Assembly: GCF_009834535.1 (NCBI RefSeq)
Contig: NC_045696.1
Span: 49,106,001 to 49,170,000, forward strand
Reading direction: 5' to 3'
DNA: 64,000 nucleotides
Origin: Camelus ferus
Taxonomy: Eukaryota
The position numbers and the translations under genes are program-made. Positions 17,523 through 56,318 of this stretch are shown piece by piece. Within the stretch, counting starts at the first letter, position 1. Each line of letters begins with the position of its first letter. The notes below the pieces were generated by a model. It was given only the letters and a program-made list of their open reading frames with translations. It did no database searches and was not told the origin of the DNA.

Positions 17523-18329
17523 TTTTTAAAATTGAAGTATAGTCAGTTATAATGTGTCAGTTTCTGGTGTATAGCATAATGTCTCATTCACACATATACA
17601 TACATATATTCATTTTCATATTCTTTTTCATTAAAGGTTATTATAAGATATTGAATATAGTTCCCTGTGCTATGCTGAAAAAATCTGTTTTTTTTTATCT
17701 ATTCTTATATATAGTAAATATTTGCAAATATCAAACTCGCAAATTTACCCCCTCCCACCCCCTTTCCTCCTGGTAATCATAAGATTGTTTACTATGTCTA
17801 CGAGTCTATATCTGTTTTGTAGATGAGTTCATCAGTGTCTTCTTTTTTCTTTTTTTTTTTTAGATTCCACAGATATGAGTGATATCATATGTTATTTTTC
17901 TTTCTCTTCCTGGCTTACTTCACTTAGAATGATGACCTCCAGGTCCATCCATGTTGCTGCAAATGGCATTATTTTGTTCTTTTTTATGGCTGAGTAGTAT
18001 TCTATTGTCAATGGACATGTAAGTTGTTTCCATGTCTTGGCTATTGTAAGTAGGGCTGCTGTGAACATTGGGGTGCATGTGTCTTTTCCAATTGTAGTTT
18101 CTCTGGATGTATGCCCAGGAGTGTGATTGCTGGATCATATGGTAAGTGTATTTTTAATTTTTAAAGGAACATCCATACTGTCCTCCATAGTGGCTGCACC
18201 AATTAACATTCACATCAACAGTGTAGGAGGGTTCCTTTTCTCCACACCCTCTCCAGCATTTATCATTTGTGGACTTTTAAATGATGGCCATTCTGACTGG
18301 TGTGAGGTGATACCCCATTGTAGTTTTGA
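17523..18329 (-). mobile_element. 5'-truncated L1 (3'UTR plus end of ORF2) with 12-bp TSD
   Basis: Poly-T, then aattgaagtatagtc-type 3'UTR. TSD TATGTCTTCTTT at 17511-17522 and 18330-18341. Inserted into an L2 3' end. Confidence 0.92.
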
Positions 18330-26480: not shown

Positions 26481-29400
26481 CATTTGATAAAAGTGGGTGG
26501 ACTTTTTTGTTGGTTTGCAGTTTGTTTTAAACTATTTACATAGTTCTGCTTTAGAAGACTGTGATTCTAACTGGGTAACATCAACTTATTGTCAACTAGA
26601 GTACCAACTCAAACATACCACAAAGCATTGCTCATCTCTTCCAATAAGGGAAAAGCTATACTTCCTCACGCAGTGGGTTATAAAAAATTTGCTGATGGTA
26701 AAAAGAACTAGCTGAAGTATGTACATAATAGTCTACCTCTACTACAAAATAATTTTTGTTTCAGAATCAGCTATGAAATTCTAATAGTCTCAAACTTTTA
26801 ATCTGGATTATTTGAGTAAATATAAAATGCCGGGCACTGTACATAATCACTTTTTTATTAAGATGTCAACCTCTGTTTTTCAGTTAAGAGTTCATGAATC
26901 TCGGTAGTTGATCAACAGTCTTTGAGGCAAAAAGTGGGATGGACATCATCAGTACTCTTAACTCCAAACAATGAAATCATTATTGGCATTAGAATCATGT
27001 TGCTTTTTGTTCAGATAATTTTTTGCCTTGGAAAAAGCATGCCTACTTTGGATTCCATAGTGCCAGAAGTATTAATAAGTTAGCTATGATTAAGTATTCC
27101 TTCAACCAGTTTGTCACTCAAACAATAAAGACGAACTTATCTGTAAAGTTAGGCGACTGAAAATGGTGTAAAACCTGGTAATACTCTCATGTTAAAGGTT
27201 TTTTTTCTTCTTTTTTTTTAAATCGACAGTAATTCTGGTCCTTGAAAAAAATGAGTTGTACCACACTAATGTAAAATCTTTTTCTGTAGCTAGTAATAAT
27301 TTCCAATATGAAAGCTTAAGGTAGGTATGTATTCATTTGAGGAGAAAGTAGTTTGAGATTGGACACTTAGAAGGTAGACATTTGAGTTACCTCGGTCAAT
27401 TTGTTTTCTAACTTTAAAAGAAATCTTGAGAGGTCAGTGGTGTCTTCTGGAAGGTAAGAACTTGGTTCTGGCAGGGAAACCACCACACAGGCTTGTAGTA
27501 TTTGCACTTAACCTCTGTGCCTCTGTTCCTCCAGCTGTCAAGTAGGGATAATGGTAATTGCAAATTTCCCTGGGAAGTAAGCATGTGCTTTGACATCTCT
27601 GGCTGAAGAGGCTATATCTACACAAATTATTATTATTAAAACATAATGCATGTATGCACAAAAACACCAGCATGGTGCTCTTTTAATGCTTATATAACAT
27701 GTACAAATACTGCTCTTCCATGCTCTCCACTTTAGGTAAGAGAATATAATCATAGCTTGCAACTAATCCAATTCTCAGAATATGGAGGAAATGTATCCTT
27801 TAAGGCTCCATATCATCCTTTTGAGAAGCACTAAACCTGTTAATCCCTCATGGTCTCTGTAGCAATTGCATGAATGGCCCCCATATTAAGCTTTTGGCAC
27901 CTTTTCAAATATTGGCTAAATTACTTTTGTTTTTTTCCTGGAGATTAGAACCACCAGGGAAAGGCTAGGGGAATGAAACTGGCTAGCGATATTAAAATTT
28001 TGGTTGTTTAACATTTAACTGAGTCTCAACAACGTGTTAAAGTGCTACCTAAACAGATAATTAGCTATTCGTTGCACAGTGGGCTCTGTCTAAATTTAGC
28101 TGTGACATTAGGTTTAGAGAATGAGAAAATAGGAAAAGAAATTTTCTCAAGGGAAACGGTGGTGTCAGCACAGCTGAGGAATGTCACAATGGCTACATTT
28201 CGTCAATTATGATCATCATCAGGGCATCTCCCAGAGCGATACAGGACAAGGTTTATTCATAAGTGCATCCTGAGAATAGGTGATGGAAAGGAGTGTTGCA
28301 GGAGACAGGTTTACAGGGGACGACAGAGGCAGACAGGCAGAGAGGGGAGAGAAAAGTAGGTGGAGGGAAAGAGGTACTTAAACCGAGCACTGGACGACAG
28401 GCTGGGAGGCGGAAGTTAAGAAAAAAGAGCGGTGGGCAGGGGGTAGAATTGTGTGTAGTCTTGGAGGTGAGTAAAACCTTGTTAGCCAGTGGGTGGAGGC
28501 TGGGGAGACCTTAGCGATTGAAGGGGGAGGACAGCGTAATCTTGGCGGCAGACAAGCATTAGTTTAACGGCGGCTGGCTCCTTATTCGACTTTCTTCTTA
28601 TTGGAGCACATTTGTGGCTATCTGATGGAGATGGCAGAACCAACGTAAAATTAATGGATTGAGAACGTATGTCCTCTGCCTCCACTGGAGCCCCTCTCGG
28701 GACAGTCGAAACTGTCCACCACCCAGCAGAACCGCCGGTGATTGTAGCTCCAAGGTTAACCACCAGGACTGTGTGTGGCAGGCAAATGGAGAGGGCAGGG
28801 CGAGGGGACATCGGGGTGAGGGAAGGTTGTGGTGGATCACAGACTCTCCTCTTAGGGGCAAATGTTTACTACTTCCCGAGGTCGCTTTTCCGCGATCAGT
28901 TCACAAGAAAACAGGCAATGAAAATAAAATTACACGTGCGAACATGCAAATGAAACAAAACCAAAGGAAAACACCACCGCACTCTAGGCGATCCGATGGG
29001 GGAAATCCATGGCCTCCTGTTGCCGGTCGCCCAGCGGGGATAGCAGACAGCCCCGCGGCCAAAGAAGCAAGAGTGAGAAAGCAAATCTTTCGCGGCCCCT
29101 CTCCTCGCCCGGCTCTGTTGACCCTTTCACCAAACCGCCCTCCCAGAGAAAGGAGCAAGAAAAAAAAAACGCCTGTGCAAACGTGCCTCGGCGGGTTTGG
29201 GGGAAGTGGGGAGGGGAAAAAGGAGGGATTCGGAGATCACAGCTGTCCCGGGAAGCAGGAAGAAGGAGAAAGTCTCTCCTTTCAGCCCTCGGCGAGGAGG
29301 GAGATGCCTAGTCCATTAGGCTACGTCCAGCGTCCCACACAGGAACCTTTAGCATGGGCAACGGAAGGGCAGCCCCATCCTGCCTTCTCTTCCCCACCCC

Positions 29401-30058
29401 CTCTCCTCGGGTCCCAGCCAGAGGGAGAGCGCCGCTCGGGCGAGGCGAGCCGGGAGCACGAAACGTCCCGCCGCCCTCCGCCTCAGTCTGCGCCGGGGCC
29501 GCGGTGGACCCGCGAGGGGCGGAGTGGGCGAGACCATTAGAAAGGCTGGGAAGGGGGGGACGAGGCAGGAACGCAAGGGGCGGGGCCTACTAACCTATTC
29601 CAGATTTTCCAGTCCTCTTTAAAACCCTGCTTTGGAAGAAACCTGGCTATCAAAGAGGAGTGAAGAGTTTTTTGGGTTTTTTTTGGGGGGGGGGGGAAGG
29701 GGAGGAGCGTGTGTGGGAGGGCGGGGTGGGAGGAGCGCGGCTTGCACTCCGGGATCAGACGGGAGCGCGAGTTGCGCGGGCTGGGCGGGCGAGTCCCAGC
29801 TCCCGCTCTGAGGGTCGGCTTCCTTTCCCCCTCCCGTGCGGGGCGGGGTGGTGCGTTCCAAGTTCCCAGGAGTTCGAGGCGGGCGGGAGGCTGGCGGGTG
29901 CCGGGGGGAGGGGAGTGGCGGCGGCGGGCGGCTCCCGCCTCAGCCTCGGCAGTGGCGTCGGCGACGGCGGAGTCGAGGCAGCCGCGAGCGCTCGGCTGAG
30001 TGTCAGCCGGCGGCGACGGCTCAAGAACTGGGAGTTGGGGACGCGCGCACCGGACCTT

Positions 30059-30088
<30 letters not shown>
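30059..30088 (+). repeat. (CCG)10 trinucleotide repeat in the NECTIN3 5' leader
   Basis: Ten perfect CCG units ending 96 nt upstream of the ATG. Confidence 0.95.
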
Positions 30089-30089
<1 letters not shown>

Positions 30090-30184
30090 GCCGTGGCCGC
30101 TGCTGCCGCCGCCCAGAGCCTGAGGCTGCGGGGCCGGGGAAGCCAGGGGGCGGGCAAGCGAGCGGGCCGGGGGGAGGGTGGGGG

Positions 30185-30347
30185 ATGGCGCGGACCCCGG
30201 GGCTGGCTCCGCTGTGTCCCGGAGGCGGCAAAGCACAACTTTCCTCCGCTTCTCCCCCCGGGGCCGGGCTCCTGCTGTCGCCCCCGACGCCACCGCCACT
30301 GCTGCTGCTGCTGCTTTTCCCGCTGCTGTTCTTCTCCCGGCTCTGTG
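30185..30347 (+). CDS. NECTIN3: Nectin-3 coding exon 1 (signal peptide; 54 codons plus 1 nt, phase-1 intron follows)
   Basis: ATG at 30185 in strong Kozak context (gggATGg) gives MARTPGLAPLCPGGGKAQLSSASPPGAGLLLSPPTPPPLLLLLLFPLLFFSRLC(G), closely matching the recalled human nectin-3 N-terminus MARTLRPSPLCPGGGKAQLSSAS...FSRLCG. Donor G|GTAGGT at 30347/30348. Lies in a CpG island. Confidence 0.96.
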
Positions 30348-33344
30348 GTAGGTGAACCTCGGCGGCCGGCGCGGGCTGAGGGAGGCGCGACCGAGGGTCC
30401 CGGCGCCGCGGCCCGGTAGGCGCGGGCCGCTCTCCCTGGCGGGAGGCGGTTGTGTTCGGCGGTTGGCTGCGTGAGCGGGTGCCGCGGACTTTGGCTGGAA
30501 ACTTTTCGCCGCGCCCGGGGCGAGGCCGGGGAAGGGCCGGGGCCGGGGCCGGCCAGTGCGGCGCTGGCCGCCCGCTCCCCTCCCCCGGGGCCGCGCCGCT
30601 CTCCACGCTGCGGGCCGGGGTTCGGCGGAGGTGCTTTCCGCCCGGACGCCGAGTGCTTGGTGATCAGGGCTTCTCCGTGTTTGCTCCCGGGACCGTTACT
30701 TCCTCCCTCATTCACGGAGGAAGCTGAAAGCGCGGACCTCTGTGCTGGGGACTGAGGTGCCGGGATGCTCGTTTGCCGCCTTCTTTTTTTCCCGGGTGAA
30801 ACTTAAGTTGTGAGCCTGGATACCTTTAGGGACCAGACCCCGACGGAATGAAGCCCTCGGAATACCCACCCCTCATCACCTTACACGCTGGAGAAGACAC
30901 CATGTTAGCCCACCCTGTAGCATCCTTTCCAGTCAGTTTCCTTCTGTCCTCCGGCCCCTTTCTGCCCTGGCAGCCTCTGGATCTCTTTGCTTCGAGCCGG
31001 TCGCTGCCTTCTAGTTTGGGACATCTATCACACTGTCCATGTTTATTTTATCAAACCCTTTTTGTGCTCAGGACTTCGATATATTTATGTGTTAAATACC
31101 TGAATGCATTGACTGTGTCCCCGGCTGTTCTGATCAAAACAAGTCCCACGCCTCTTCCCTGTCTCTTTCTTCCTTCTTGTTGTGTTACAGACTTTTTGTT
31201 TGGGGCGGGGGCGTCGTCACATTTGGGAGATAGTCTCTTTGTAATCAGTTTCTAGGTATGGGAAGACTAGAAGCCTATTTGTTGGGGATCGTGTAAAAAA
31301 TATTGCATTCTCATGCAAGAGAAGTGGACGTAAGTGATCATTAATAGAAGGCCGTGGTTTGAGAAAATGAGGCCCCTAGTCTTTGGGGACTAGATCTGTC
31401 TTTTGGTAACAGCTAAACACTGCAGGACATTATTCATTCGATGACTCTCACTTGATGAGGAAAGTGGAGAAACAAAACTTAGGCTTGCTGAAAGAGTGGT
31501 TTACCTAAGTATTTTTACTGGTATACAAGTCTGCTGTAAGAGATCAGTGTTTAATGAAATCTTAAATGAAACCGTAAGTTTTACCAGTATTTATTACAAA
31601 GAGAGATGTGTGCAGATTTCTTGGATGGTTTGATTTAGAAGAAAGAGAATCCTGTACCCTGTAGGTGTGTCAGGGTTGTTGGTTATGAGGGAGGCAAAGT
31701 TTTCAAGAGATTGAGTGCCCCTTATAGGCTGACAGTTTCCACTACCAGATCACCATCACGTTTCAAGCACTGTAATGACATTTTCTAATTAATGGAGTAC
31801 AGTATGATAAATGGCATGTTATCTAATCTACATTGTTTCTATAGTCCCACTCCCCAGATGTTTGGTTCCACTGCACAGTTCCTAACGCTGTTACTTCTTT
31901 AAGTTGATGGAAGATTCTAGATTGAATTTGTGTACTGTTCTTTTTCATTAAAGAGGATTGTGGATTACAATTGGGTGAGAGGAAAATGGGAGGGGATGTT
32001 AATAGTTTACTATCCTGATTTAGATTGTGTTAAGGACTAAGAGAATATTACTTGTACCTCCAATAAAGTTTTATCTAGCTAGGCAAAGCCCCACAGAAGA
32101 CTAAGCCAAGGAATATGTGCAAGTAATAAAAGGAAATAGGATTTGAGTAATAATTTCACAGTGATTGTGTAAGTGAAATGTTGATTACTTTTTGAAGGAA
32201 CACATTGGTTTTCACATGGGAGGAGAAAAAAGTTTAAAAAAACCTCTTTAATAATGTGCTGTTGGAGGGACTTGATACTTTATTTTAGAATCCTAAAAAT
32301 TCAAGCAGTACAGGCAAATGGACTGTGATTTAGAAGAGGTGTAAATTAAAGTTTTTAGAGTTAACTCTGCTTGTAGTTGTAGAGACAGACGCTAGGTTTG
32401 TGTTGCTGTGCACTGCTCATTTAAAGAGCTTCCTTTTTTGGCTTATAGTGTTATAACACCCTAATTTGTGAACCCTATGACAAGTTTTTTCCATCAACCT
32501 TTATTTTAGAATTCAGTCTTTGAGTAGGGCACAGTTGTCCTGATTTATGGGTACTTCGTAAGTATGGAAGCAGAATTTTCTCTATGTAACCTGTTTTCTG
32601 ATCTAACAGTCATAGTACTGGTTACAAGGTTTGGCATGTACTGATGTTTGAGTTGTTAGTTTTAGAGTTGAGAAGAACTGTAGGCTTTAAAAAGGTGACT
32701 CTGATGATTTGTTAATCAGAATGCTTATCTTATAACATACAAATTATTTTTTCTTTTTGCTACTATTTTTGATATACTGCTTATGTTTAACATGGTTCTA
32801 ACTATGCTAAACTTTTACAGTATCTATTAACACAAAATAGTATTTTTGTCATGTTAAGTTTATTACTATTAAAAAAAAAACCCTCGTGTCAAATTAGATA
32901 TGAAATTCTGAGAGCTAAAACTTTTTTCATTTCAACAAGGTTTTATCTTAAATGGATATTTGGAGGATAATAGGAAAAAAGATCTAATAATTGAACCTTT
33001 AACAGCACTTTCAGAACTTCCTATATTCCTGACACTTGGGAACATAAAACATGAATAAGACAGAGTCCTGGCTTCAAGGAGCTTACAGCATTATGGTAGA
33101 CATAAAGTAAATAGATGATTATAAGGCAGCTCAGTGTTTATATGATAGAGGTCTGTATGAGGTGTACTATGTGTTACGCAGAAGAGGGATGCCTAACCTA
33201 CTAGGTAAAGATATGAGTGTAAACCGAGAAAAAAAGTTACTTTAAAAAAAGCAGTTGAGTCAGATTTTCTTATTGAGACTTAGACATTGTGGTAGGTGGT
33301 ATAAGTTTGTGTTCTCTCACCCAGTTTATGATTTAGGGCCTAAA

Positions 33345-35564: not shown

Positions 35565-38443
35565 AACATTTGCTTTTTTCCCCCCTTAATAACTGTTTAA
35601 GGAATTTGCTATAGAACAAAATGAAATCAAGAGAATACTTGGTTTATGATTTCATCTTCCATGTTGAAATAAAATAATAAAACAGAATAATAGCTGTAAT
35701 AAATAACTACAAAAACTCTTCTAAGTTTGACTTCATTTCCTGTCTGATCCTAGGTATCTTTCAAATCCTTAGTCCCTGGAGCAAATTCTATTCATTTTTT
35801 CATGCTTTTAGATTTAGAGCAATGTTTGCCAAAGTGTTTAACAGAATGCTAGTCTCAGAAGATATGTTTTGGGAAGAAAATACCATAATTGAATACATTT
35901 AGGAGTGGGAAAAACTAACCATGTAACCCCCTCCCTCTTGGAAAGTCACGGTGTACATTAGTTAATTAATGGTCTAAGAAATTCTTGAGTAAACGATCCT
36001 TTTTTGCAGCCTAATTAAACAACCTGTTATGTTGCAGAAGCTATATTTATATTGTACAGAAGACACTATAGGAATTCTATCCTTAGAAAGGCTTGTATAC
36101 TTGATAATATTCCTATCTTGACATTGTTCCTATTCCTACCTTCCAAAATGGGTAGAGGGGAAGAGTATGGGTGTGTGTGGGGGGTGTGTATGTATATATA
36201 TATGTATATACATATATATATATAGTATTTATTTATTTAGTAAACTGGAAAAGGTTGATAAGTTTTAAAGATGTTGCTTGGTGAGGAAGTTTTTCATTGG
36301 TTTTTCCTTTTTCTAAAAGTTCTTTTCACTTTGTTTAGTTCTGTCTCATTATTCTCCATTGTCTTACCCATTTTGAATCTGAGGTTTTGCAGAATTGACC
36401 TTCTAGGAGAAATATGGTGGTTCTTCTTTGGTGTTGCAAAATCAGCAGTATATTATTTACCCTAGAATATATGTGGTTTAAGCAGCTTTGGTGGGACACC
36501 TCACTTTATACATAACATGTCTCAGTCTGGGCTTGAGTTTTGGGAATAAAGTGGTTTAATTTAAGAAAGCTGTTTTGTTTTGTAATGGAGCTATACCAGT
36601 GCTGTTACTGGGAAGAACATGAAAAAAATTGATGCAGATATGAAAAAGGTGCGTACAGCTAGGACTCCAACTCAGCGTTTGAGAACATTGTATGCAGTTA
36701 AAGAGTGTGCTTGACTCTTCTGTGGCTCCATTTCAGAGGAAAAACAAGAATATTAATCAAAAGTTAGTATTGGAAAACTATGGTAAGATGAATTGCATAT
36801 AGTGATTCTTCCTATGAGTTATCCATGATAGACATGATTGTCATTACTAAAATATCTGAGGTCATTGTTTTTGAAACTTCTTAATATTATATTTAATTTA
36901 GTCATAACTATTGTGGGCTATATTAAGATTTCCTTTCACAAGTGTCCTTGTCATTATGAATGCCAAAATCCCTTCTAATTTGATTTAGATTAGAGATAAT
37001 CATTCATGGTTATAATTTCAGTTTAAATTTGACTAAATTAGACAATAAACTATCTAGTATTTAAATTTCCTTAGAGATACCCTGGTTCCTTTATTGTAAA
37101 CGCAAAAATTTTTTAAAGCGTCTCAATTTGTTTAATTTTTTTTTCTTTAATTGAAGAGATTCAAATGGGAGACGGTACATAGCTAACAGTTCTGTGCTTA
37201 CTAAGGGCACTGGGCTAGAAAGTCATAACATTTTTCACTAAACCCATGAGTCTGCGTATGTTAATTGCTGTAGCAGTTACTTTAAATCCCTGATTTCTGT
37301 TTGTTGAATTTAAAAGAGGTAAAAAATTATCAAAAAAAGCTTTGGGAAACATGCAAATAATGCAGTTGTATTGAACATCAACTTTTATCGTAGCTACCTC
37401 ATCCCTATAAACAATTCTGAGATTATAAATATATGAATATTGTCATGATACAGTTTCATTTACCTAGTCCAAATTAAAACCAGAATGAACTTTAATATTG
37501 AAATAACAGTAAGATACTCCTCTTTCAAGTTGTTACCTTCTGTTTTTTATACACTAACTAGTACAGTGTCAAAGATTCATTATTTTTCTTTTAAAGCTGG
37601 TATAGCCCCTACAGTTGACTGATTTTGAATGACAAAAAGAAAGGCAAGTCAGGGCTAGAATTAGTAATACTAATGAAGACATCTTTCTTAGCAGGAAATA
37701 ACACTTTAGTTAGACTATTGACACTCTTTTCTGTATTTAAGAAAGATTATTTTTACACTTTTCAGTGTAAAACATTGTCAATTTTTAGATTCATAAGAGT
37801 TAGCAATTATGGTGGCTATTTTGAAACCATACATTGTTTATCAAACTTATTTTTCCATATATGTATGAAAGGATCTGGGCATTGATATATTTTTGTTATA
37901 TTTGTAACTGATAGTGAAAATATTTAAACATATATGTACTGGTGGAATTTTTATATAGCATGTCAAAAAGTCTCTTGTCTTGTAAAAGCTTTAATCCTAA
38001 CAGCATCTGTTAAAATATAAAAACAAATCTGAAGTTCCCTAAGAAAAATATATTATTTTTCTTTGAGAATACTACTGTTGCTTTGCTGCCCTCTACAGTC
38101 ATCTAAAATAGTCACTCTAGACTTTTCTTCCTTCAGATGATTAAAATACTTCCTTGACCTTTGTGTGAGCTTTAAATTTCAAGAGTGAGTTGAATAATAT
38201 TTACCCTTAAAATGTGATAACATTTTAATTAGTCACAACAGTTGATCTATACTGGTAATGCCAAAAATACAGTGCTTAGAAATTAAAGCAGGGGATGGAC
38301 TGTGGGCTACTGAGCATTAGTAAACAGATGATAGAGCACCAACCAAGTAGTAGGCAATATGGAGTATACCCCAGTGGAATAAGACGTGGTGACTGCTCCC
38401 AAGCTTATAAACCCATTGGTAAGACTAACTGCAAGTTAGATTT

Positions 38444-49591: not shown

Positions 49592-49690
49592 TTAACAGTT
49601 CTCAAACTCTCTGGTCTTGGGACTTTTTAGTACTCTAAAAAATTATCGAGGACTGCAGTGAGCTTTTCTTAATGTGGATCTTATCTGTCG
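49592..49690. mobile_element. Charlie1(b)-like hAT element, left part (split by full-length L1)
   Basis: gttctcaaactctctggtcttgggac...aaaaattatcgaggac...gagcttttcttaatgtgg. The consensus continues at 55930. Confidence 0.8.
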
Positions 49691-49691
49691 G

Positions 49692-49743
49692 TATGTATGT
49701 ATGTATGTATGTATGTATGTATGTATGTATGTATTTATTTATT
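49692..49743. repeat. (TATG)10(TATT)3 microsatellite occupying the L1 tail position
   Basis: Read directly, at the 3' end of the minus-strand L1. Confidence 0.9.
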
Positions 49744-50059
49744 TAATTTTTTCCAGTTTTATTATGTAGAATTATTACAGTTCAACTGCACATGCACATT
49801 ATATTGCATGTAAGTATACATATAAATAGTACATTGCACATTTTTTAGTTTTCATGTATGTAGTAATTATTGTTTCTAAGAACAGATTAGATCTTTAGCT
49901 TTTTAAACTTACATAATTATCAAAGGAATAAAGCCAAGTATAAAATAAGAATCAACAGAATGTGGTAAGCCAATTATAAGGGACAGTCAGATGTGCTTAC
50001 ACATATTCAAGAAATCAAAATAATAATTAGTTCATTTGTGTCATTATTATTGTTATTTT

Positions 50060-53000
50060 TTAGATTCTTCATATAAATGATGTCATATGGCATTTTTCTT
50101 TCTCTTTCCAGCCCACTTCACTTTGAATGACAGTCTTCAGGTCCATCCGTATTGCTGCAAATGGAATTATTTTATTCTTTTTATGGCTAAGTAGTGTTCC
50201 ATTGTATATATGTACCACATCTTCTTTATCCAGTCATCTTTTGATGGACATTTGGGTTGTTTCCATGTCTTGGATATCGTAGATAGTGCTGCTAAGAACA
50301 TTAGGGTGCATGTGTCTTTTTGAATTTTATTTTTCTCTGGGTATATGCCCAGGAGTGGGATTGCTGTATCTCGTAAGTCTATTTTCAGATTTTTAAGGAA
50401 CCTCCGTACTGTCCTCCATAGTGGCTGCACCAATCTACATTCCCACCAACAGTGTAGGAGGGTTCCCTTTTCTCCACACCCTCTCCAGAATCTATCATTT
50501 GTAGACTTTTCAATTTTGGCCATTCTGGCTGGTATAAAGTGATATCTCATTGTAGTTTTGATCTGCATTTCTCTGACAATTAATGATGCTGAGCATTTTT
50601 TCATGTGCCTATTGGCCATTTGTATATCTTCATTGGAGAATTGCTTGTTTAGGTCTTCTGCCCATTTTTGGATTGGGTTGTTTGTTTGTTTGGTATTAAG
50701 GTGTATGAGCTGTTTGTGTATTTTGGAAATTAGTCCCTTGTTAGTCACATCATTTGCAAATATTTTCTCCCATTCTGTAAGCTGTCTTTTCGTTTTGTTG
50801 ATGGTATCCTTAGCTGTGCAAAAGCTTTTAAGTTTAATTAGATCCCATTTATTTATTTTTGCTTTTAATTCCAATACTCCAGGAGCTGGTTCAGAAAATA
50901 TATTGCTGTGATATATGTCTGTGAGTGTTCTGCCTATGTTTTCCTCTATGAGTTTTATAGTATCTGGTCTTACATTTAGGTCTTTAATCCATTTTGAGTT
51001 TATTTTTGTACATGGTGTTAGAGAATGTTCTAATTTTAGTCTTTTGCAGGTAGCTGTCCAGTTTTCCCAGCACCACTTATTGAAGAGGCTGTCTTTTCTC
51101 CATTGTATATTCTTGCCCTCTTTGTCATAGGTTAATTGACCATACGTGTGTTGGGTTATTTCTGGACTTTCTGTCCTGTTCCATTGATCTATGTGTCTGT
51201 TTTTGTGCCAGTATCATACTGTTTTGATTACTGTAGCTTTGTAGTATAGTCTGAAGTCAGGGAGCATGATTCCCTCAGCTCCATTGTTCTTTTTCAAGAT
51301 TGTTTTGGCTTTTCGAGGTCTTTTGTGTTTCCATACAAATTTTAACATTTTTTGTTCTAGCTCTGTGAAGAATGGCTTTAGTAACTTGATAGGGATTGCA
51401 TTGAATCGGTGAATTGCCTTGGGCAGTATGACCATTTTAACAGTATTGATTCTTTCAATCCAAGAACGTGGTATATCTTTCCATTTGTTTATGTTGTCTT
51501 CAGTTTCCTTCATCAGTGTCTTATAGTTTTCGACATTTAGATCTTTTGCATCCTTGGGTAGATTTATTCCCAGGTATTTTATTCTTTTTGGCATGATGGT
51601 AAATGATATCATTTCCTTAATTTCCCTTTCTCCTATTTCATTGTTAGTGTATAGAAATGCAACTGATTTCTGTATATTAATTTTGTATCCTGCAACTTTA
51701 CCATATTCATTGATGAGTTCTAGTAGTTTTCTGGTTGCTTCTTTAGGGTTTTCTATGTATAGTGTCATGTCATCTGCAAACAGTGACAGTTTTATTTCTT
51801 CGTTTTCCAATTTGAATTCCTTTTATTTATTTTTCTTCTCTGGTTGCTATGGCTAAGACTTCCAAAACTATGTTGAATGAAAGTGGTAAGAGTGGGCATC
51901 CTTGTCTTGTTCCTGATCTTAGAGGGAATGCTTTCAGGTTTCTCCCACTAAGTATGATGTTAGCTGTAGGTTTGTCATATATGTCCTTTATTATATTAAG
52001 ATATGTTTGTCTGTGCCCACTTTCTGAAGAGTTTTGATCATAAATGGGTGTTGAATTTTATCAAAAGCTTTTTCTGCATCTATTGAGAGTATCATATGGT
52101 TTTTATTCTTCAATTTGTTAATGTGGTGTATCACGTTGATTGATTTGTGTATATGGAAAAATCCCTGCTTCCCTGGGATAAATCTGACTTGATCATAGTG
52201 TATGATCCTTTTAATGCATTGTTGGAGTTGATTTGCTGGTATTTTCTTGAGGATTTTTGCATCTATATTCATAAATGATATTGGCCTATAATTTTCTTTT
52301 TTTATGATATCCTTGGCTGGTTTCGGTATCAGGGTGATTATGGCCTCATAGAATGAGTTTGGAAGTGTTCCTTCCTCTGCAGTTTTTTTTAGAATAGTTT
52401 CAGAAGGATAGGTGTTAACCCTTCCCTAAATATTTGGTAGAATTCACCTGTGAAGCCATCTGGTCCTGGACTTTTGTTTGTTGGGAGGTTTTTAATTACT
52501 GATTCAATTTCAGTACTGGTAATTGGTCTATTCATATTGTCTATTTCTTCCTGGTTTAGTCTTGGCAGATTGTACCTTTCTAAGAAATTGTCCATTTCTC
52601 TGCGTTGTCCTTTTTGTTGGAGTATAGTTGTTCATAGTATCCTCTTATGATTCTTTGCATTTCTGTGGTATCGGTTGTAACTTTTCCTTTTTAATTTCTG
52701 ATTTTGTTAATTTGGGCCCTCTCCCTTTTTTCTTGATGAGTCTGACTAAAGGCTTATCAATTTTGTTTATCTTTTCAAAGAACCAGCTTTTAGTTTCGTT
52801 GATCTTTTCTATTGTTTTTAAAGTCTCTATTTCATTTATTTCTGCTCTAATCTTTATGATTTCTTTTCTCCTGCTAACTTTGAGGTGTGTTTGTTCTTTC
52901 TCCAGCTGCCTAAAGTGTAAGGTTAGGTTGTTTACTTGAGATTTTCTCGTTTTCTGAGGTATGCTTGTGTTGCTATAAACTTCCTTCTGAGAACTGTTTT

Positions 53001-53879
53001 TGCTGCATCCCAGAGGTTATGGGTTGCTGTGTTTTCATTTTCATTTGTCTCAGAGTATGTTTTGACTTCCTCTTTGATTTCTTCCATGATCCACTGATTG
53101 TGTAGTAGCATATTGTTTAGCCTCCACGTGTTTGCAGTTTTTGCAGTTTTTTTCTTGTAGTTGATTATTTACCTAATAGCATTGTGGTCTGAAAAGTTGC
53201 TTGGTATGATTTCAGTTTTATTAAATCTGCTGAGGCTAGCTTTGTGGGCCAGCATGTAGTTGATTCTGGAGAATGTTACATGTGCACCTGAGAAGAATTT
53301 TGTTTTTTGAATTTTATTCTTTTGTTTTTTGGGGGAATGCTCTATAGATATCAATTAGGTCCGTCTGGTCTAATGTGTTATTCAGGGCCTGTATTTCCTT
53401 ACTGATTTTCTGTCTAAATGATCTGTCCATTGGTGTATGTGAGGTGTGAAGGTCCCCACTATTGTGTTATTGTCAATTTCTCCTTTTGTGTCTGTTAAAA
53501 GTTGCCATATATGTTGAGGTGCTCCTGTGTTGGGTGCATATATATTTACAGTTGTTATATCCTCTTCTTGGATTGATCCCTTAAGCATTATGTAGTGCCC
53601 TTCTTTGCCTCTTGTAACAGTCTTTGTTTTAAAACCTATTTTATCTGATATAAATATTGCTAATCCAGCTTTCTTCTGGTTTCCGTTTGCATGGAATATC
53701 TCTTTCCATCCCCTTACTTTCAACCTGCATGTGTCTCTAGCTCTGGAGTGGGTCTCTTGTAGACAGCATATATATGGGTCTTGTTTTTGTATCTATTCAG
53801 CCAGTCTGTGTCTTAAGGTTGGAGCATTTAATCCATTTACATTTAAGGTAATTATTGATAGGTATGTTCTTACTGCCAT
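50060..53879 (-). pseudogene. L1 ORF2p (endonuclease/reverse transcriptase), multiple stops and frameshifts
   Basis: [52 protein letters not shown] and HCWWEC motifs spread across separate ORF fragments. Confidence 0.95.
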
Positions 53880-53965
53880 TTTGTTAATTGTTTTGAGTTT
53901 GTTTTTGTAGGTCTTTCTCTCTCTCTCTCTCTTTCTTTTTGTTCTCTTTTCTTGTGCTTTAATGA

Positions 53966-54856
53966 CTAGAGAAGTTCCTTTAATATTTTTTGTAAAGCTG
54001 ATTTGGAGGTGCTGAATTTTTAGTTTTTGTTTACCTGTGAAATTTTTTATTTGTCCATCAAGTGTAAATGATAGCCTTGCTGGATAAAGTATTCTTGGCT
54101 GTAGGTTTTTCCCTTTCAGCACTTTAAATATATCATGCCACTCCCTTCTGGCCTGAAGGGTTTCTGCTGAAAAATCAGCTGTTAACCTAATGGGAGCTCC
54201 CTTGTATATTATTTGTTGCTTTTGTCTTGCTGATTTTAATATTCTCTCTTTATCCTTAATTTTGTGAATTTGATTAGTATGTGCCTTGGTGTATTCCTCT
54301 TTGGATTGATCCTTTGTGGGACTCTCTGAGCTTCCTGGACTTGGATGAGAGTTTCCTTTCCCAAGTTAAGGAAGTTTTCAGTTAGTATCTCTTCAAAAAT
54401 TTTCTCAGCTGTTTTCTCCCTTTCTTTGTTTTCTGGGACCCCTATAATGTGAATATTGTTGTACTGTGCATTGTGCCAGAGTTCTCTTAAATTATCTTCA
54501 TTTATTTTCATTCTTTTTTTTTTTTTTCTCTGTTCTGGAATGGTGATTTCCACTATTCTGTCTTCTAGCTCACTAATCCATTCTTCTGCCTCGTTTAGCT
54601 TATTCTTGGTTCCTTCTAATGTGTTACTCATTTCGGTAATTTTATTCTTCAACTCTGTTTGGGTATTCTTTATATTTTCCAGCTCTTTGCTAAAAACTTC
54701 ACTTTGTGCATCTATGCTTCTCTTGAGTTCTCTGAACATCTTCACCATCATCATTTCAAACTCTTTCTTGGATAAATTGCCTATTTTGTCATCACTTATT
54801 TCTTCTTTGATTTTATCTTGTGTCTTGTCCTGGAGGATATTCCTTTGCTGCCTCAT
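53966..54856 (-). pseudogene. L1 ORF1p, frameshifted
   Basis: MRQQRN...coiled coil...NIHIIGVPE...RNTPRHILIK, then LQPRILYPARLSF in another frame. TAG at 53966-53968. Confidence 0.9.
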
Positions 54857-55929
54857 TGTGTCTGTCTTTCTCTTTGTGTTTTTAGATAGACTAGTTATGA
54901 TTCTCAACCTTCAAAAAGTGGCCCTCTATGGAAGATGTCCTATGTGTCCCAACAGTACACTCTTCTCTTATCACCCAAGGGGCAGGGTCAAGCTGTTCCT
55001 AGTGTAGTCTGGCTTGTGTTTGTGGATTCCTTCCACAGGCTTGGGGCTATTGTTTTCTTATTTCTGTTATCTGCCCCCTGGTGGATGAGGCTGGGCTATA
55101 GGCTTATGTTGGTTTCCTGATAAGAGGGGTCGGTGTCTGCCCACTGCTGGGTGAAGCTTGGCCTGAAACTCTGGTGGGTAGGGCCCTGCCTAGAGGTGTT
55201 TTCGGCTCAGAAAGTGTGATGATGGATGAAGCTTTGTTTCCACCCAATATATTGTTTGGCCTGAGGGTTGCCAGCCCTTAAGCCTACAGGCTGTTTGGTG
55301 GGGCTGTGTCTTAGGTGTTATTAATCCAATCAAGATGTCAGCCTCCAGGGAAGTTCATGTAGATGAACATTCCCAGAATGTCTGTCACCAGCTTGTATGT
55401 CCCCTGGGTGACCTGCAGCAGTCCCCTAACTCCTCAGGAGAACTTCCAAAACCAGCAGGCTGGTCTGGCCCAGGTTCCTATGCAGCCCTTGGACCTGGTG
55501 CAGTCGAGATCCCGTGTGCACCTCCCAAGAGTGTTAAGTCTCTATCTCTCCCAGTCCTGTGGGGCTCCTGAAGTTAAGCCCCAAGAGCCTTCAAAACCAG
55601 ATGTTCTGGGGTCTCCTCCTCCCACTCCCGGAACCCTGGTCTGGGGGGCCTGATGTGGGGCTCAGAACTCTCACTCCTGTGGGAGCTCATCTGTGACTTG
55701 ATTGTTCTTCAGCTTGTGGGTTGCCCACCCAGAGGATATGGGGCCCAACTATATATCATGATCTCACCCCTCCTACCTTCCTGTTGTGGTTCCAGTTGAA
55801 GCAGATCCTTTTTGCTAGACTCCAGTCTTTTTCTCTATGGCTGTTGAGAAGATGGTTGTGGTTTTGTTGTAGTTACAAGGAGAGGCAAGTTCATGGTCCT
55901 GCTACTTCGCCATCTTGGTTCAATCTCTC

Positions 55930-56318
55930 TGTCAATATTTATTTGGTTAAAAATTAAAACTGAGAAATTTAAAATGTTTTAATTCCTTCAGAAATGATAA
56001 ACCCATTATAATTAACATATTTTTATGAAAACCAAGTATTTCCTATAAAAATTAGTGATAAGAATGGCATTGTATTTTTATTTTGCGTGTCTTTAATATC
56101 TGTCATAATAGATAATGACTGGATTTTCATGCCTACTTCAGCATTCAGTTTGCTAAGTATCATGTTTTGTAACCTCTGGAAATCCACTATATACTCATGA
56201 CACAATGAGAATGAAAAAGACAGATAACATCTTAGTATGACTGTGAAAATAGTTTTGACTTCATTAACCACCTGAAAAGGTCTTGAGTACTCTTAGGATC
56301 TCACTTTGAGTACTGGTG
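55930..56318. mobile_element. Charlie1(b)-like hAT element, right part
   Basis: aaattaaaactgagaaattt...taaacccatta...gaatggcattg...ctctggaaatccacta...gaaaatagttttgac...cactttgagtac continues the consensus started at 49592. Confidence 0.8.

Follow-up and report, generated by a model that had tools for sequence, protein, structure and literature searches.

The L1 element on the minus strand of the Camelus ferus stretch analysed here (64,000 nucleotides of contig NC_045696.1, hereafter the window) ends in an AT-rich segment unlike the 3′ ends of other L1 copies nearby, which raises the question of whether this segment was joined to L1 in a single event at this locus or belongs to an L1 lineage with a 3′ end of its own. 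A preliminary description of the sequence had proposed both, namely a template-switch chimera or a lineage that had captured a new 3′ end. In this report, we describe the element, its relatives across the genome, and the probable history of its 3′ end, and we argue that positions 49753-50028 are very probably the ordinary 3′UTR of a distinct, middle-aged, and now inactive L1 lineage, which came about through an old replacement.

Structure of the element in the window

The element occupies approximately 55922-49753 on the minus strand, as do all features named below, and its extent is defined by alignment with another full-length copy (L033), by its start motif, and by Pfam domains; it is full length yet dead. 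L033 can be aligned to it over 6.2 kb, from 55921 to 49740, at 88%, with homology starting at 55921, where the 5′ end of the window copy reads ...CCAAGATGGCG; the start motif is present as well, and the earlier characterization of the element as a full-length L1 therefore holds. The 5′UTR (54908..55922, recognized by homology to L033, with an approximate 3′ boundary) opens with tgaaCCAAGATGGCG, a YY1-box-like start, and a motif of this type is given in the available text of PMC5381506 as the usual mammalian L1 start. It is followed by broken ORF1 remnants (53970..54907, boundaries approximate), in whose minus-strand ORF pieces Pfam recognizes the L1 ORF1 RNA-binding domains (Transposase_22, E 4.3e-16, in 54236-54907; Tnp_22_dsRBD, E 3.8e-10, in 53793-54122). 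The ORF2 remnants (50069..53950, start boundary approximate) contain several stops and frameshifts and are identified from ORF pieces and a match to RVT_1 in the broken frames (E 4.1e-09, 51214-51810); no endonuclease domain was found at E<=0.01 in the five broken-frame ORF pieces scanned.

Behind ORF2 lies a proximal 3′UTR common with canonical L1 (50029..50068), consisting of an A-rich linker and then gacacaaatgaact, and delimited by a 40-row alignment and by BLAST end points. The lineage-specific AT-rich 3′UTR of 276 nt follows (49753..50028), a high-copy segment that always stands behind L1 ORF2, and its polyadenylation signal AATAAA (49758..49763), read both in the sequence and in other copies, is placed 5 nt ahead of the tail. 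The tail itself (49690..49752) comprises an A-run, (AAAT)3, and an (ACAT)n microsatellite, the last being peculiar to the window copy, as the corresponding tails elsewhere are short and simply A-rich. The window contains two such (TATG)n/(ACAT)n microsatellites (36183-36239 and 49690-49745), the second of which grew from the A-tail of this L1. Elsewhere in the window, positions 28001-32000 form a GC-rich island (55-57% GC, against 30-44% GC in the rest), which may be a CpG island or mark where a gene starts.

Directly upstream of the L1 start stands GACAGAGAGAT (55923..55933), and adjoining the tail is GACAGATAAGAT (49678..49689). These candidate target-site duplication (TSD) copies differ by one mismatch and one indel, with an exact core of only 6 nt, and an unanchored local alignment gave them no support, since 37% of random windows reach the same score. 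They look like a decayed TSD, the argument being their position at both ends of the element.

The point at which L1 homology ends

When 49600-51500 was compared with the window by BLAST, the matches to other L1 copies stopped at 50026, 50047, 50053, 50056, 50056, and 50057, and a (TATG)n repeat was all that matched 49600-50025. The 40-row alignment (14 carriers of the new 3′UTR and 26 canonical rows) places the loss of likeness precisely at the step from 50029 to 50028, where the shared ...ggacacaaatgaact ends, ~40 nt past the ORF2 stop of the window L1. When four 3′ ends were aligned, the three copies that terminate near 17528, 19750, and 59096 proved to have in common a distal 3′UTR of ~290 nt that carries a G-rich tract and ends ...ctatacttcaat(a)n, and this canonical distal 3′UTR is absent from the window copy. 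On the minus strand, the AT-rich segment and its AATAAA are read as the preliminary description had them, with no A-run between the L1 part and the new segment. Its three structural observations are accordingly reproduced: L1 homology that ends shortly behind the ORF2 stop, a distal 3′UTR that is present in sister copies and missing here, and an AT-rich segment with AATAAA and no poly(A) toward L1. The words "foreign" and "polyadenylated" that it applied to the segment are interpretation rather than observation.

Copies across the genome

In the genome (2.09 Gb, 2043 contigs), a 284-nt query covering the segment yielded at least 2101 first-look candidate copies. The best 40 candidates were scored per query, so that copy numbers are lower bounds and the samples lean to the least diverged copies; in this sample, all 39 copies other than the window's own were 90-92% identical over at least 272 of the 284 nt. 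Among 29 fetched loci, 25 run at least 30 nt into L1 ORF2 over the same junction, three stop 8-10 nt beyond it, and one begins 3 nt inside the segment. A 35-mer spanning the junction found 228 matches at up to three mismatches, 58 of them exact (the window included), and its reversed control found 0. Many matches joined to L1 at one and the same junction, in at least 228 places, are what the preliminary description had associated with a subfamily bearing a recruited 3′ end. In one locus (L090), a copy cut exactly at the junction immediately follows the A-rich tail of a SINE-like sequence derived from a tRNA, this neighbor lying ~110 nt upstream of the element.

The carriers bear the marks of an L1 subfamily spreading by the normal mechanism with this 3′ end, i.e., AATAAA with an A-rich tail, TSDs, variable 5′ truncation, and 5′ inversion. 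All 30 copies compared end ...aataaaactg(g) plus an A-run, after which the flanks are unrelated; the form ...aataaaactgg/actga stands exactly ahead of the A-run in 21 of them, and one or two bases are changed in the other nine. The shortest fetched copies have a few dozen bases and the longest are full length, and several have a clear TSD of 13-20 nt starting right behind the tail; a crude TSD test was passed at p<=0.05 by 7 of 23 copies, the A-rich flanks making the null of this test harsh. Two long copies contain inverted 5′ segments (L034:5220-5694 and L035:3648-4201), as expected from twin priming.

Public sequencing data give a similar picture of abundance. Twenty runs from four organisms contain at least two thirds of the sampled words, and in assembled runs, 2414-2986 contigs per run match the stretch at 88% or more. 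The 180-nt flank of the window insertion was identical in four assembled runs or differed by one 3-nt gap; no contig in these four runs bridged the microsatellite, so that they do not show the insertion itself to be shared, and these organisms are too closely related to that of the window to give the insertion a date.

Older, younger, and third forms of the 3′UTR

Loose ends in the run contigs, together with locus L010, pointed to an older form of the junction, of which six examples were fetched (L077-L082, e.g., L081:690-1000). This form has the same 3′UTR with 15 additional nt just past the junction (...aactacttattatttataacttagatga|ttgatttc...), and its 35-mer found at least 292 matches, against 0 for the reversed control. 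In the six older-type copies, ORF2 ends as in canonical L1, and their identity to the window copy is only 74-88%; the older type shows lower pairwise likeness among its copies (89.7%) than the window's type does (93.2%). In the younger subfamily, to which the window copy belongs, ORF2 ends in a TGA (50071-50069) three codons ahead of the canonical TAA, the 40-row alignment giving "tga aga atc taa" where canonical copies read "tgt gga atc taa".

A pattern requiring non-L1 bases upstream of the junction gave 29 matches, 11 of which were fetched. Seven of these odd-junction loci are ordinary L1 copies with small linker variants, three are cut at the junction or within 10 nt of it, and one (L087) is rearranged, with an inverted piece of the 3′UTR just upstream. 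Three of the 11 (L083, L090, and L093) revealed a third form, in which the new 3′UTR is kept as far as ...acagtacatatatgtaaa and its last ~95 nt are replaced with a different ~60 nt containing an AATAAA of their own. A 37-mer for this form found 90 matches (control 0), several of them ~200 nt downstream of older-type junctions. A single event does not account for the third form as well; this 3′ end had a more involved history, and its forms can be placed in more than one order.

A few loci combine features of different groups. The full-length copy L010/L033 carries a local duplication of ~40 nt of the A-rich linker together with an older-type junction, although the end of its ORF2 groups with the younger type; this junction state may represent a mosaic or a parallel change. 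In L084, the ORF2 stop is followed by a (CAAA)n-like linker resembling that of the young canonical lineage and then by the new 3′UTR, and the far end of the element is divergent; this may be a recombinant or an independent expansion. Descent of L084 from recombination with the young canonical lineage was considered and dropped as unproven, as A-rich linkers can expand alone.

Phylogenetic position of the carriers

A tree was built from the last ~500 nt of ORF2 (503 columns), using fetched loci that cover at least 400 nt of it, with duplicates of the window or of other loci dropped. Its 40 rows, picked from the best matches, comprise 14 carriers of the new 3′UTR and 26 canonical copies of various ages. 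The 14 carriers all group in a single clade (100/100) that lies within the older canonical copies, the stem leading to them measures only 0.025 changes per site, and the youngest L1s form a separate clade (100/100). When three older-type copies are added, the 17 carriers again make a single clade (100/97) in which the older copies are basal. Since all 17 fall together with the older copies at the base, the new 3′UTR appears to have been acquired once, by a lineage that then went through at least two subfamilies. The preliminary proposal of an L1 lineage with a new 3′ end is thus upheld: all 17 carriers form one clade within canonical L1, and their distal 3′UTR has no detectable homology to the canonical one.

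Age of the lineage and the surviving canonical L1

In a sample biased toward the least decayed copies, window-type copies differ from their majority sequence by 3.5-6.7% (median 4.6%; the window copy itself by 6.7%), and in a sample with the same bias, members of the canonical copy D family differ from theirs by 8.6-10.7%. A near-majority copy used as a query retrieved nothing above 93%, its best matches being 92-93%, whereas the end branches of the youngest canonical copies in the tree measure 0-0.015 changes per site; the new-UTR lineage therefore looks long extinct, the lack of young copies being a statement from this one query. The available text of PMC5872511 uses 0.13% per million years for horse and rhinoceros, and at this borrowed perissodactyl rate, the lineage would be tens of millions of years old; a decay of 4-8% would put it ahead of the divergence of the two camelid tribes.

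The youngest L1s were located through the ORF1 family PF02994, for which the best 150 matches were scored; many of these have the same score and open frames of up to 330 aa or more. In the 3′ ends of eight high-scoring elements with open ORF1, six show the ORF2 end followed by the canonical G-rich 3′UTR, one shows the canonical terminus only, and one has no L1 at the expected place; the new 3′UTR was found in none of the eight. A very young canonical family is represented here by nearly identical 3′ ends (L067-L073) and by a 5′UTR of ~1.6-1.9 kb (L075-L076) unrelated in sequence to the one in the window copy.

The new and the canonical 3′UTR compared

Profiles of the new and the canonical 3′UTR, each built from 30 copies, produced no mutual match (best E 0.52, ~2 bits). 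The two also differ in composition. GC content is 26% in the new 3′UTR of the window's type and 24-29% in the older type, compared with 31% in the canonical copy D family and 34% in the youngest canonical copies. A G4 motif is present in 0/30 and 0/6 copies of the two new types, respectively, and in 24/30 and 4/4 of the two canonical ones. The longest G-run in the carriers is 2, and none of the 36 carriers scanned has a G-rich tract. The predicted fold of the new 3′UTR was no better than those of shuffled sequences (z = 0.06). According to the available text of PMC5381506, which cites Howell and Usdin 1997 for the tract, a G-rich tract occurs in all mammalian L1 3′UTRs studied, rabbit excepted, and mammalian L1 3′UTRs end in AATAAA and a poly(A) tail; the same text describes L1 3′UTRs as poorly conserved among species.

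That description lends some plausibility to the idea that nothing was replaced and that the segment is the canonical 3′UTR diverged beyond recognition, as does a weak, non-significant, roughly collinear profile match (172-203 of the new 3′UTR against 218-250 of the youngest canonical one). The ORF2 end adjoining the new 3′UTR, however, still matches canonical copies at 78-83% identity, the carriers' stem amounts to 0.025 changes per site, and likeness is lost within a few bases; moreover, canonical 3′UTRs of very different ages can still be aligned with each other. So sharp a break beside so well preserved an ORF2 end and so short a stem is not what gradual divergence produces; replacement is the better reading, and we regard divergence in place as very improbable.

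Alternative origins of the 3′ end

The preliminary suggestion of a chimera made at this locus, in which a cellular mRNA would have been the first template of reverse transcription and L1 RNA the second within this one insertion, would account for the lack of an A-run at the junction, for the segment's own AATAAA, and for the position of the whole unit between candidate TSDs. It does not survive the genome-wide comparison, in which the identical junction recurs in at least 228 places and the form longer by 15 nt in at least 292 more, all 39 scored copies are 90-92% identical, and the carriers constitute a clade with ORF2 substitutions of its own; the copies' unrelated flanks exclude their being segmental duplicates of this locus, and a one-off chimera is therefore extremely improbable. 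We attach equally little probability to a change after insertion, either a deletion of the L1 3′ end here or the later insertion of a sequence with its own TSD, the latter having been raised in the preliminary description: the abrupt loss of homology is all that speaks for such a change, and it is countered by a junction that is the same genome-wide and by a segment that always ends in AATAAA and an A-tail followed by unrelated flank. That description had also allowed that the segment could prove to be the 3′UTR of a known L1 subfamily. In substance this is the case, as it is the regular 3′UTR of an L1 subfamily. No description of this camelid L1 3′ end was found in the full-text literature, a scope outside of which repeat-library reports fall, and the subfamily may already be in repeat libraries.

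Classical 3′ transduction, in which read-through of the L1 poly(A) signal takes flanking DNA along, is common for L1 according to the available text of PMC5381506, and would likewise place an unrelated sequence with its own poly(A) signal ahead of the tail. In its plain form, however, it keeps the whole L1 3′UTR, whereas the distal ~260 nt, including the G-rich tract, are absent in every carrier examined. A full canonical 3′UTR followed by the segment was not seen among the 29 odd-junction matches, 11 of them fetched, in a search that was not sensitive. Transduction could have given the founder no more than an initial step, with a second one still required, and as a sufficient explanation it is hardly credible.

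How the replacement may have occurred

Replacement in an old founder is thus the reading that we develop here. An ancestor with a canonical L1 would have lost everything beyond ~40 nt past the ORF2 stop, and in its place would have come ~290 nt of AT-rich sequence, unrelated to the lost part and bearing an AATAAA; the founder would have stayed mobile, and its descendants would have spread by ordinary target-primed reverse transcription. The older subfamily would have had the junction longer by 15 nt and the canonical ORF2 end, and the younger one would have arisen with the 15-nt deletion and the ORF2 stop three codons earlier, the window copy presumably being one full-length, decayed insertion of this younger subfamily.

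The L1 enzyme primes on a poly(A) tail and does not require a particular 3′UTR sequence, which would explain why an exchange of the 3′UTR was tolerated. The segment is found directly ahead of the tail, with a poly(A) signal, in every copy, and its bearers have transposed many times. It would thus function as the 3′ end of the element, its poly(A) signal providing for the tail that the L1 reverse transcriptase uses in priming, and no specific 3′ sequence or structure seems to be needed.

The founder may have originated in more than one way. We give about an even chance to a route at the DNA level, with a master copy becoming joined, through a deletion or read-through, to neighboring DNA that contained a poly(A) signal. 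A template switch between RNAs, with reverse transcription starting on a polyadenylated RNA of the cell and moving to L1 RNA just behind ORF2, is a close contender that we consider somewhat less probable, and some other process is improbable. When the donor was sought with a profile of the segment, the 64-kb window gave no other match on either strand, the L1 body included, and the fetched loci gave only further L1 copies, namely position 2-244 of L044 and a 42-nt piece in L049; no donor was present among the 11 fetched odd-junction loci either, by a search that is insensitive. If the donor were truly the end of a host mRNA, the founder would be a template-switch chimera that became a master element.

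Implications for annotation and L1 biology

For genome annotation, the segment is to be masked as L1 and should not be mistaken for a gene end picked up by L1 or for a rearrangement at this locus. To L1 biology, it contributes a well-populated example of 3′-end exchange, set against the 5′UTR turnover and the near-universal G-rich tract that are stressed in the available parts of PMC5872511 and PMC5381506. With tract-bearing and tract-less lineages present in one host, the two can be compared directly for copy number, insertion sites, and lifespan, and such a comparison bears on whether the G-rich tract helps retrotransposition. It is conceivable, though we hold it to be rather doubtful, that the lineage amounts to a natural experiment in which a G-rich 3′UTR was dropped for an unrelated AT-rich one, the end was remodelled at least two more times (the 15-nt deletion and the alternative ~60 nt), thousands of copies were produced, and only the lineage with the G-rich tract survived. 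The gain is modest, as the segment behaves like any L1 3′ end: it is an ordinary repeat for annotation and of modest interest for L1 evolution.

Comparison with known L1 lineages and chimeras

The lineage resembles canonical L1 of the same genome in the common ~40 nt past the stop, in the CAAGATGGCG start motif, and in its insertion marks, and differs from it in an unrelated distal 3′UTR, the canonical one ending ...ctatacttcaat(a)n and that of the youngest copies ...gattataaatcaataaaaaatg. The 5′UTRs of the window copy and L033 show no likeness to that of the youngest canonical L1, the only canonical age class compared. Coexisting L1 lineages with non-homologous 5′UTRs are described in horse and rhinoceros in the available text of PMC5872511, which also cites cases in primates and mouse. 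As in the horse and rhinoceros, a side lineage was long amplified beside the main one, with differing 5′UTRs as the "rule" of that paper expects; in contrast to those cases of 5′UTR turnover, the 3′UTR was exchanged here as well, and what is less usual is that it was exchanged for one without a G-rich tract. The camelid transposable element survey PMC8605555, in its available text, does not treat L1 subfamilies and UTRs.

The rabbit L1 is, in the portion of PMC5381506 available, the single exception among sampled mammalian L1s in lacking the G-rich polypurine tract, and from this description it is comparable to the present lineage in that a low-GC 3′UTR lacking the tract was nevertheless amplified. 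Unlike the rabbit L1, the tract-less lineage found here lived beside a tract-bearing one and then died out.

The junction itself also has counterparts in individual insertions. Template switching by L1 generates chimeric retrocopies, such as U6/L1 and mRNA/L1, which are single dead insertions. The carriers share with these chimeras the joining of unrelated sequences inside one insertion with no poly(A) between them, and differ from them in that the L1 part remained complete and the resulting element gave rise to thousands of copies.
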